The notes below the pieces were generated by a model that saw only the letters and a program-made list of their open reading frames with translations, did not search any database and had not been told where the DNA came from. Made by a program: the position numbers and the translations under genes. A stretch of DNA of 64,000 bases from Escherichia coli (lineage in GTDB: Bacteria; Pseudomonadota; Gammaproteobacteria; Enterobacterales; Enterobacteriaceae), in the NCBI RefSeq assembly GCF_003334405.1, contig NZ_QOWM01000002.1. One strand, 5' to 3'. Of the stretch, positions 51,066-52,196 are shown piece after piece (position 1 is the first letter of the stretch; each line of letters begins with the position of its first letter).

Positions 51066-52196
51066 GTGACAATAGCAAGAGATTCTGTTAGTGGTGAAAT
51101 TGTTCATGGTCATGATCTTCGGGAAATGGATGATCTTTATATACGAACAACCACTTTTGAATGCCCGTATGACAAATGTAGGATACCCGCTACTCCATGT
51201 AGCTTCAAAGAAATAAATTTAAATCAATCATACTTTCGATATAAAGAGACTCATAGGCCGGGATGTAAGATTCATGATCCTAAGAGTAAAAATAAGTGTA
51301 ACTCAAAGAATAATAAAAAGCATAATTCACCACCGGCATTAGCTATATCTCTTCTGAAACTTGATGTGTCTGAAAGAAATTACGACTCTTCTGGCAGAAG
51401 AATTATCAAACAGACGCGAGATGATGAAAAAGATTTGGGAGGTAAAGTACACCCTGTGTCATCTTCAAGCATCAAACCGGTAGTAGACTACTACATTAAT
51501 GGAGATAATCTCTATGAACCATTATCAATTCCCCCTTATGGAGTTAGAACTTATAAAGATACTTTTCAACTAATCATCTATAAAGAAGGAATTAGATATA
51601 ATAAGCCAGCAATTTATTTTGGTAAAATTCAATCTAATATACGGCTGGAGATAAATTCGAATAGATATTACCTTACTTTTTTAGCCAGAAAGAAAGGTAC
51701 CAAACAAGCATATAAACTTGAAATTGATGCTTCAGAATGGGATGAAAGTAAAAAGAGTTTTTTCTGTAGTGAGTATGAAAAACAAAGAGCAGAAGCAAAT
51801 AAGTATTATAATGGACTAAAAGACAAGCGCAAAGCAACCAAATATCTTAATGTTTTCTTTTTTGGTTTTCCTGATGAGTGCGATAGTTTTTTATTTAAGA
51901 CTAGTTTTTTTAAATTGATTTATATCGTTTTCTTAGATGATTTTGATGTGACTTATAATGACAAAAACTACAGCATAGAAAAAGAACAGCTAATTAGAGA
52001 TGAAATTAACAAAGAACATTTGACAGCTCATCAAAATAGAATAAACCTTGCTGAGGTTGCTGAGGTTGCTGAGGTTGCTGAGGTTGCTGAGGTTGCTGAG
52101 GTTGCTGATTTTGACAAGAGCGAATTTAACCCTTCGGATTCTGATAGGAAAATATGGACTGGGATAAGAAAGCTTATTTCATTCTTTAAAAAATAG
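51066..52196 (+). CDS. Hypothetical Lys/Asn-rich protein with an internal (AEV)n repeat
   Basis: 376-aa ORF with a GTG start 6 nt after an aggag RBS. Strongly AT-rich codon usage unlike the core genes. Confidence 0.55.
   Translation: MTIARDSVSGEIVHGHDLREMDDLYIRTTTFECPYDKCRIPATPCSFKEINLNQSYFRYKETHRPGCKIHDPKSKNKCNSKNNKKHNSPPALAISLLKLDVSERNYDSSGRRIIKQTRDDEKDLGGKVHPVSSSSIKPVVDYYINGDNLYEPLSIPPYGVRTYKDTFQLIIYKEGIRYNKPAIYFGKIQSNIRLEINSNRYYLTFLARKKGTKQAYKLEIDASEWDESKKSFFCSEYEKQRAEANKYYNGLKDKRKATKYLNVFFFGFPDECDSFLFKTSFFKLIYIVFLDDFDVTYNDKNYSIEKEQLIRDEINKEHLTAHQNRINLAEVAEVAEVAEVAEVAEVADFDKSEFNPSDSDRKIWTGIRKLISFFKK
52048..52108 (+). repeat. Tandem 9-bp repeat (ttgctgagg, about 6.7 copies), in frame inside the hypothetical CDS
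   Basis: ttgctgaggttgctgaggttgctgagg... encodes (AEV)n. The unit is a multiple of 3, so copy-number change alters length but not frame. Confidence 0.9.

Follow-up and report, generated by a model that had tools for sequence, protein, structure and literature searches.

An orphan gene upstream of qatABCD in an Escherichia coli pheV island belongs to the Avs8B superfamily and carries a hypervariable in-frame repeat

The open reading frame (ORF) at positions 51066-52196 (+) of a 64,000-nucleotide stretch of Escherichia coli chromosomal DNA (contig NZ_QOWM01000002.1; the whole stretch is termed the window) precedes a defense operon of the Qat type and had been described, from the letters alone, as an orphan without a recognizable domain. 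Profile comparisons now place its product securely in the superfamily of Avs8B, a family that is already known in PADLOC as PD-Lambda-4_B and whose function is uncharacterized. The ORF product extends beyond the domain shared by this superfamily with an acidic spacer, which is encoded by a hypervariable tandem repeat, and with a basic amphipathic tail. Comparison of loci across genera establishes with confidence both that the family moves with mobile elements as a compact module of one gene and that nothing links the ORF to Qat beyond one co-inherited block. As a tentative reading, the ORF may be an autonomous mobile-element gene whose product would act as a membrane-tethered nucleic acid binder on DNA entering or leaving the cell.

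Most of the properties that the initial annotation had assigned to the ORF were borne out. The length of 376 residues and the GTG start agree with the ORF list and the translation, the ribosome-binding site is a good one (AAGGAG, 5 nt upstream of GTG), and the GC content is 0.318 over positions 51001-52000 compared to ~0.52 in the surroundings of the ORF and ~0.50-0.55 for most of the window. The description of the product as rich in lysine and asparagine was correct for lysine (10.9%), but asparagine (6.1%) is only mildly enriched. A weak candidate promoter was noted upstream, but sites of this type were no more common in the promoter scan than in shuffled sequence and provide no evidence of function. 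The ORF is securely judged to be a genuine gene, as opposed to a frame that is open by chance, because several properties of the aligned homologs agree. Orthologs share its start position (MTIA...). The ratio of nonsynonymous to synonymous substitution rates (dN/dS) was 0.17 in comparisons with Klebsiella and Citrobacter, and the remaining pairs that were not saturated gave values of 0.10-0.15. The C-terminal tail that follows the repeat is kept even in Vibrio homologs that are 30% identical, and the GC content of all homologs is 31-35% irrespective of host. This uniformly low value fits a horizontally moving, AT-rich element gene.

The ORF product produced no meaningful match in Pfam, NCBIfam or PHROGs, and the same was true of its short-form relatives in Pfam and NCBIfam. 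To this extent the reported lack of a recognizable domain stood, but PADLOC returned a partial match to PD-Lambda-4_B (E = 3.7e-6, residues 209-288). Close clusters recovered by a word-indexed search numbered only 15 and came from Enterobacterales and Aliivibrio; many of them are ‘partial’ proteins from contigs that are broken at the repeat. When a profile of the domain from the clade of the ORF (A2) was compared with 1.84 billion representatives (clusters at 50% identity, cut-off E <= 0.001), 289 clusters were obtained, and their ~300-residue members match PD-Lambda-4_B end to end with E-values down to 4.7e-189. Alignment of clade A2 with 35 short forms (A3) by hhalign gave a probability of 100% and an E-value of 1.2e-38 over 279 of ~305 columns. 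Residues 1-300 of the ORF product are homologous along their full length to Avs8B-type proteins. Sensitive profile searches, which had been proposed alongside the initial annotation, therefore placed the ORF in the Avs8B superfamily through both the clade profile and hhalign. No homolog was detected in a collection of 50,697 phage genome records.

PD-lambda-4 has been renamed Avs8 and is a two-gene operon in which Avs8A, a Mrr-STAND sensor of capsid proteins that combines a Mrr nuclease with a STAND NTPase in ~1280 residues, is followed by Avs8B (bioRxiv 10.1101/2025.07.02.662641; 10.64898/2026.01.04.697583). In the window there is no adjacent Avs8A-like gene: the ORF is flanked upstream by a VasL remnant and downstream by the gene for QatA, which is a KAP NTPase. 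The PADLOC model PD-Lambda-4_A was absent from the 15 matches of QatA (E up to 0.1) and from the matches of QatB, QatC, QatD and the two-transmembrane (2TM) effector of a nearby cyclic oligonucleotide-based antiphage signaling system (CBASS), and was absent also among the best 25 of the 32 matches of the CBASS cyclase. Therefore, the ORF encodes a divergent homolog of the B protein rather than a member of a two-gene system. Elsewhere in the superfamily, the short form P0105 directly follows a 1284-residue protein in an smpB-side island, near an integrase fragment. That protein is a candidate Avs8A by position only, as Avs8A precedes Avs8B in the published operon.

The shared domain begins with a small module in which residues M1, T2, A4, H14 and G15 are invariant in alignments A1 and A2. 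Residues C33, C38, H63 and C67 are likewise invariant in these alignments, and the equivalent residues C31, C34, H61 and C65 are invariant in the short forms (A3). This Cys-Cys-His-Cys (CCHC) set comprises the only polar residues that are invariant throughout the superfamily, in which certain hydrophobic or aromatic positions and W..K and FF.G motifs also are conserved. The sequence thus contains the four conserved Cys/His ligands in two knuckles that typify a zinc ribbon, and the set plausibly binds zinc. The stretch comprising residues 72-128 is variable in the alignment save for the near-invariant N87, I94 and L97. It includes two segments, residues 72-87 and 101-128, that are probably disordered as judged from the structural model, and between them a conserved NSPPA..ISLLKL motif at approximately residues 87-99.

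The AlphaFold2 model has a mean predicted local distance difference test score (pLDDT) of 70, and combines a small N-terminal beta/zinc module with a core for which the score is 84-92 (residues 130-300). The topology of the core may resemble an oligonucleotide/oligosaccharide-binding (OB) fold, with strands at residues ~182-221, a helix at 227-250 and further strands at 259-291. Of the structure searches, which also had been proposed, that of AFDB50 recovered many uncharacterized proteins of ~300 residues from diverse phyla (E = 1e-14 to 1e-19), but Foldseek comparison with the PDB displayed the same OB-like trend with no significant match. The core is plausibly, although not securely, an OB-like nucleic acid binder, and single-stranded DNA (ssDNA) is the probable ligand. 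No catalytic constellation is visible among the conserved residues, nor is any enzymatic or effector domain, and sequence searches of the PDB produced only spurious low-complexity matches to multicystatin and ORC6. A nuclease of the PD-(D/E)XK or CoiA-like type, which the C..C...H...C pattern brought to mind, was rejected as conserved acidic or lysine catalytic residues are lacking. CoiA_N in Pfam gave a single weak match (E = 0.1), in one of 35 members.

Long forms of the superfamily (>=345 residues) account for 50 of the listed representatives. In these proteins the domain is followed by a low-complexity spacer rich in serine, proline and glutamate, with a mean net charge of -1 per 22 residues. 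A basic amphipathic tail terminates 45 of the 50 long forms, with a mean charge of +4.3 and a hydrophobic moment of 0.68, in contrast to values of -1.0 and 0.39 for the linkers (p ~1e-20 for tail versus own linker). The tail of the ORF product, RKIWTGIRKLISFFKK, has a hydrophobic moment of 0.79 and a net charge of +6. An analogous arrangement, in which a spacer links a folded domain to an amphipathic helix at the terminus, is seen in peripheral membrane proteins such as MinD and FtsA. The tail plausibly serves as an anchor to the inner membrane on its cytoplasmic side, in which case the acidic (AEV)n or (PE)n spacer would set a variable separation between the membrane and the binding domain.

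The spacer of the ORF product is encoded by a perfect 9-bp tandem repeat, present in-frame in 6.8 copies at positions 52048-52108 and specifying (AEV)n, which had been missed in the initial annotation. In 37 sampled complete E. coli genomes, copy number varied from ~5.8 to 62.8 with a median of ~33, and the allele in the window is among the shortest. In 35 of these genomes, the difference in locus length relative to the window was an exact multiple of 9 bp. Alleles of 472 and 544 residues are annotated as intact and one allele is annotated as frameshifted. Copy polymorphism among near-identical alleles with retention of the frame marks the locus as a coding variable-number tandem repeat (VNTR), and this applies equally to the pVA1 plasmids and to the O157 TR2 locus described below.

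Repeats of this type also occur in relatives of the ORF. The Vibrio homologs also possess (AEV)n, with the unit GCTGAAGTT in 16 copies in pVPE61a and ~55 copies in V. maritimus, and inferred copy numbers range from ~3 to 34 in 37 near-identical pVA1-type plasmids. The pVPE61a homolog (V. parahaemolyticus) is located at 7001-8128 of locus L006, and ISVa2 is situated within the matched stretch in two pVA1-type records. The pVA1 repeat is probably the ‘9 bp SSR’ (simple sequence repeat) used to genotype plasmids of acute hepatopancreatic necrosis disease (AHPND) (PMC6117253). The Citrobacter ortholog likewise has an AEV repeat of 9 bp, whereas the intermediate clades of O55/O157, Xenorhabdus, Yersinia and Pectobacterium instead have (PE)n with a 6-bp unit, and QP, EP or SEV repeats occur at contig breaks in other lineages. 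Every unit is a multiple of three bases in length and the tail remains conserved beyond the repeat, and therefore variation in spacer length is tolerated or favored.

The paralog in O55:H7/O157:H7 strains, which has 414 residues and (PE)~22 (L015 9001-10245 in CB9615), hosts TR2, a hexamer (TGGCTC) locus of the O157 multilocus VNTR analysis (MLVA) scheme. Exact matches to both published TR2 primers lie on either side of the repeat (10020-10149), at 9716-9733 (+) and 10266-10283 (-) of the same locus. TR2 is the most diverse TR locus of the scheme, with 92.2% diversity (PMC2246123). No paper was retrieved in a literature search on the AEV repeat. The repeat is precisely where short-read assemblies are broken or contain N-gaps (L011 10992-11089; P0001-P0004, P0007-P0009 and P0011), and therefore most database entries of the family are truncated ‘partial’ proteins. 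Some entries have been named automatically as ‘procyclic acidic repetitive protein’ or ‘Ribonucleases G and E’.

The strongest association that was found for the family is with the backbone of a mobile element, and this linkage survives deep divergence. The gene (ORPHAN) is part of an integrative mobilizable element with the order DUF6387-HTH-IntA-IntB-hyp543-hyp132-hyp137-ORPHAN-BamE-like-hyp233-relaxase-hyp133 (HTH, helix-turn-helix), which is >90% identical in E. coli O55:H7/O157:H7 (314 genomes), Enterobacter genomosp. O and Pantoea (L015, L017 and L018). Across the copies with >90% identity hyp137 is placed in brackets, that is, IntA-IntB-hyp543-hyp132-(hyp137)-ORPHAN. The core order IntA-IntB-hyp543-hyp132-ORPHAN is kept at 28-65% identity in E. 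cloacae, Erwinia and P. brenneri (L004, L019 and L020), and Erwinia, the sole one of the three with readable downstream sequence, also retains hyp137, the relaxase and hyp133. The products of the element include two tyrosine recombinases, unknown proteins of ~540-610 and 132-139 residues, a BamE-like lipoprotein and the relaxase. The spread of the element among E. coli, Enterobacter and Pantoea is recent (dS 0.066 between the O55 and Pantoea copies), and the O55:H7 copy also carries an ABC-three-component system.

The gene and a MobQ/MobA relaxase gene point away from each other in a Y. pseudotuberculosis plasmid and in a Pectobacterium element related to it, where TraD, H-NS and a PilV shufflon are also in the vicinity; nothing convincing emerged from inspection of the interval between relaxase and gene for inverted repeats resembling an origin of transfer (oriT). 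The gene in Vibrio plasmids (pVA1-type and V. maritimus) is inside the transfer-gene region, where it overlaps the upstream gene and is followed by genes for H-NS and a coupling protein. In pheV islands the gene is located after a type VI secretion cluster in E. coli (as a remnant), Klebsiella and Citrobacter, and the arrangement in Y. frederiksenii is similar.

According to the reading that is tentatively preferred here, the ORF product would serve the element by binding DNA, probably ssDNA, at the inner membrane. The zinc-ribbon/OB-like domain, devoid of an enzyme active site, would be borne on the acidic spacer and anchored by the C-terminal helix. The purpose might be the transfer or establishment of the element itself, or else the exclusion of incoming competitor DNA, whether phage or conjugative. 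Qat and CBASS would have been inserted later as cargo between the ORF and the pheV integrase. Several considerations weigh against this proposal. The binding of zinc, of DNA and of the membrane are all deduced from sequence. As the short forms are without tails, membrane tethering is not the core function of the superfamily. The proposal is compatible with either direction, own transfer or exclusion, and a choice between them would be a guess. The association with mobile-element backbones could reflect hitch-hiking in integrase-proximal cargo hot spots. Avs8B, which is without known homology, is dispensable for Avs8 and affords no defense against lambda alone (bioRxiv 10.1101/2025.07.02.662641). 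Finally, inactivated copies are found in several hosts, including a frameshift in the Y. pseudotuberculosis plasmid (L007 8001-9233), a Pectobacterium copy interrupted by IS1 and a gene that is split in Y. frederiksenii (L012 10001-11700; L013 10001-10930), and therefore the gene is dispensable and often decays.

The main rival to this proposal, unlikely but deserving of serious weight, is that the gene is a generic, exchangeable defense partner, a cytoplasmic adaptor, decoy or sensor that would cooperate with any system next to it, or a stand-alone, single-gene anti-phage system. PADLOC already counts the family within PD-lambda-4, and the defense genes that adjoin its members are varied. In addition to Qat with CBASS in the window and the protein in the Avs8A position, one short form is divergent from BrxR with an SNF2 helicase and a DUF1156 methylase, the long form P0073 follows an AAA ATPase with Peptidase_S8 near SMODS, and an OLD nuclease and type I restriction-modification genes are further neighbors. 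In the P. aeruginosa megaplasmids pBJ86 and pPAG5 (L031 7001-7912 and L032 7184-7726), short forms are positioned between defense cargo and a two-integrase module. The fixed side at this site is integrase-hyp-integrase-hyp, whereas the cargo on the other side is CBASS type II in one plasmid and dynamin-family plus UvrD-like genes in the other; the site looks like a hot spot for defense cargo. A partnership in defense is, however, difficult to align with the behavior of Avs8B in the Avs8 system cited above, with the absence of a visible enzymatic or effector domain, and with the constant link of the long forms, which is to integrase/relaxase backbones and plasmid transfer regions and to no single defense gene. 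A more doubtful proposition is that the superfamily as a whole, with >=289 clusters outside the coverage of Pfam, NCBIfam and the PDB, is an autonomous mobile-element module, a zinc-ribbon/OB DNA binder that intercepts DNA at entry, as an exclusion or anti-phage device or as an establishment factor for the transferred strand of the element itself, with the hypervariable spacer of the long forms, at the inner membrane, as a ‘ruler’ tether and PD-lambda-4B as a separate passenger. Slippage of the repeat might then tune the reach of the protein or help it to escape counter-measures.

It is improbable that the protein itself is translocated, either as a type IV substrate with conjugating DNA or as type VI cargo, with the tail as secretion signal. 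In favor of this are the positive charge and hydrophobicity of the tail and the disordered linker before it, but the strong amphipathic periodicity of the tail is typical of membrane-binding helices. Similarly, the gene is embedded among type IV secretion or relaxase genes in the Vibrio, Yersinia and Pectobacterium elements and is immediately preceded by type VI clusters in Citrobacter, Klebsiella and Yersinia and by the remnant of one in E. coli, but many long forms reside in islands and integrative mobilizable elements that have no secretion system of their own, and the type VI neighborhood is not general.

The initial annotation offered two options for the ORF, an accessory or regulatory component of the adjacent Qat-like operon or an unrelated cargo gene. 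The operon is a true QatABCD at 52328-56887 (PADLOC E-values of 0 for QatA, 1e-129 for QatB, 1e-138 for QatC and 6e-97 for QatD), and the ORF itself matches none of the four components. The two are on the same strand and the spacing of ~130 bp that had been noted is 131 bp, from the stop codon at 52196 to the qatA ATG at 52328. As no terminator-like site was found in a scan of this intergenic region, read-through from the ORF into qatA is possible in this strain. The relative Avs8B also adjoins a defense NTPase. Furthermore, co-occurrence in E. coli is near-total: of 5426 complete genomes, 255 possess the ORF and 259 possess this Qat, CFT073 being among the strains with the Qat block. However, the copies are >=99% identical in 241 of 256 ORF-matching and 253 of 260 Qat-matching records, and therefore trace to a single block inherited together, which does not count as independent evidence of linkage. 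The ORF thus accompanies Qat only within one ~99%-identical pheV-island block of E. coli.

Outside E. coli the association disappears. Homologs of QatA-D were not found by tblastn at any non-E. coli locus with readable flanks, which comprised Citrobacter, Klebsiella, two Yersinia species, Xenorhabdus, Providencia, two Enterobacter, two Pantoea, Erwinia, Pectobacterium and three Vibrio plasmids or contigs, so that the gene lacks an adjacent Qat homolog at >=11 loci from other genera. The Citrobacter portucalensis ortholog (80% amino acid identity) occupies the same pheV site without Qat. It adjoins the integrase directly, at a distance of ~350 bp, and has an OLD-family nuclease gene and a type VI secretion cluster upstream. 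Homology between the E. coli and Citrobacter loci extends from ~40 bp upstream of the start codon to ~35 bp beyond the stop codon, and the latter limit probably marks the junction with inserted Qat cargo. From these limits, the ~9 kb of Qat, CBASS and insertion sequence (IS) debris looks like cargo inserted between the ORF and the integrase. Moreover, qatABCD of P. aeruginosa, and QatBC alone from an E. coli operon, defend E. coli as heterologous host without a fifth gene (PMC13279940). Thus, a role for the ORF as a fifth component of QatABCD, such as a sensor or modulator co-transcribed with qatA, is highly improbable and the accessory option is not supported, whereas the alternative of unrelated cargo is upheld in the form of an independent cargo or mobile-element gene of the Avs8B/PD-lambda-4_B superfamily. 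The last possibility, that the ORF is a decaying, functionless remnant and the repeat only slippage-prone DNA, would accord with its AT-richness, its orphan status in standard databases and the broken copies, but is effectively refuted by the dN/dS values of 0.10-0.17, by the 289 related clusters, by conservation of the start position, CCHC set and post-repeat tail across 30%-identical homologs, and by repeat units that are always multiples of 3 in alleles that remain intact at up to 544 residues.

The surroundings of the ORF correspond, from their gene content, to a decayed pheV island that extends from ~49.0 kb to 62.6 kb of the window. Convergent with Qat is the two-gene CBASS, consisting of the 2TM effector at 57440-58015 (-) and the oligonucleotide cyclase at 58023-59351 (-), beyond which are IS66/IS4 fragments (59486-60667), a P4-type integrase (61081-62406) and tRNA-Phe (62541-62616). 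To the left of the ORF are glcC, glcD and a truncated glcE, followed by an Ag43 fragment and the VasL remnant. The glcE gene is cut after ~286 codons and its ORF continues into unrelated sequence (48196-50301), and the Ag43/Cah autotransporter fragment at 48982-50301 (-) corresponds to profile positions 504-758 of 948. The truncated glcE and the Ag43 fragment look like a deleted left junction of the island. A second, fairly AT-rich ORF at 44455-45675 (+), between a fatty acyl-AMP ligase gene and glcC, has a TTG start, 406 codons and a local GC content of ~0.41, and its product had no match in Pfam or NCBIfam. Features of the ORF and its flanks are collected in Table 1.

Table 1. Coordinates in the window of the ORF, its predicted segments and flanking sites
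Feature	Positions	Strand	Basis or remark
Candidate sigma-70-like site, weak (TTTAAA-18-TAGAAT)	51009..51038	+	Upstream of ORF; promoter scan
Ribosome-binding site AAGGAG	51055..51060	+	Read from sequence
Whole ORF, 376 aa + stop, long-form PD-lambda-4_B/Avs8B superfamily member	51066..52196	+	
N-terminal module, aa 1-70, CCHC zinc-ribbon-like motif	51066..51275	+	Alignments; pLDDT ~80
Lys/Asn/Ser-rich low-confidence segments, aa 72-87 and 101-128	51279..51449	+	pLDDT <50
Beta-rich core, aa 130-304, with W225/K230 and FFFG motifs	51453..51977	+	
In-frame VNTR, unit GCTGAGGTT (Tandem Repeats Finder rotation TTGCTGAGG) x 6.8, (AEV)n acidic spacer	52048..52108	+	
C-terminal basic amphipathic tail RKIWTGIRKLISFFKK, aa 361-376, predicted membrane-targeting helix	52146..52193	+	
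Intergenic region between ORF and qatA	52197..52327	+	Homology to Citrobacter locus fades ~35 bp past stop

The analysis removes a false lead, as the gene that precedes E. coli Qat in CFT073-type pheV islands is not to be counted as part of Qat. It also unites four separate ‘hypothetical proteins’, namely Avs8B/PD-lambda-4B, the product of the O157 TR2 host gene, that of the AHPND pVA1 repeat ORF and the present orphan, in one family with a shared architecture. The long-form architecture, the links to O157 TR2 and pVA1, and the independence from Avs8A and Qat were not described in the papers that were searched. The ‘B gene’ of PD-lambda-4 may be an independent passenger at integrase-proximal island sites and on mobilizable-element backbones. 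If the proposal of a membrane-tethered DNA binder is true, the family would represent a mobile-element function of a new type, one that incorporates a hypervariable spacer. In practical terms, the tendency of the repeat to break short-read assemblies accounts for the many ‘partial’ entries of the family in databases.

Comparison with well-characterized proteins is by analogy. Zinc sites are present in the OB-fold ssDNA binders gp32 and RPA70. The ORF product shares no sequence similarity with T4 gp32, the DBD-C domain of RPA70 or MCM10, structural scores are modest, and the zinc ribbon in the ORF family is a separate N-terminal module, unlike in those proteins. The combination of a folded domain, a variable low-complexity spacer and a conserved terminal amphipathic peptide is a layout shared, without homology, with the membrane-targeting helix of MinD and FtsA, the C-terminal linker and peptide of FtsZ, and the (EP)n/(KP)n rod of TonB; the PE repeat of the O55/O157 paralog scores against the TonB model. 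Among true relatives, the TR2 paralog matches the ORF product in architecture and in its ...FFKK tail, with ~60% identity over the domain, but has a (PE)n repeat of 6-bp units in place of (AEV)n with 9-bp units and resides in the integrative mobilizable element by ypjA instead of at pheV. The pVA1-type protein is ~30% identical, also has 376 residues, and possesses an (AEV)n repeat and a similar tail, but its gene, unlike the ORF, is set within a plasmid transfer region as described above. Avs8B itself (PADLOC PDLC03992; WP_000443183.1 of ECOR07) is ~22% identical to the ORF product and homologous over the 300-residue domain, with which it shares the N-terminal motif, the CCHC set and the W..K and FF.G motifs, and both genes are beside defense genes near island integrases. 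In contrast to Avs8B, the ORF lacks a neighboring Avs8A-like STAND NTPase, its most constant neighbors are the backbone genes of mobile elements, and its product bears the additional repeat spacer and basic amphipathic tail that extend it to 376-544 residues compared to ~300 for Avs8B.

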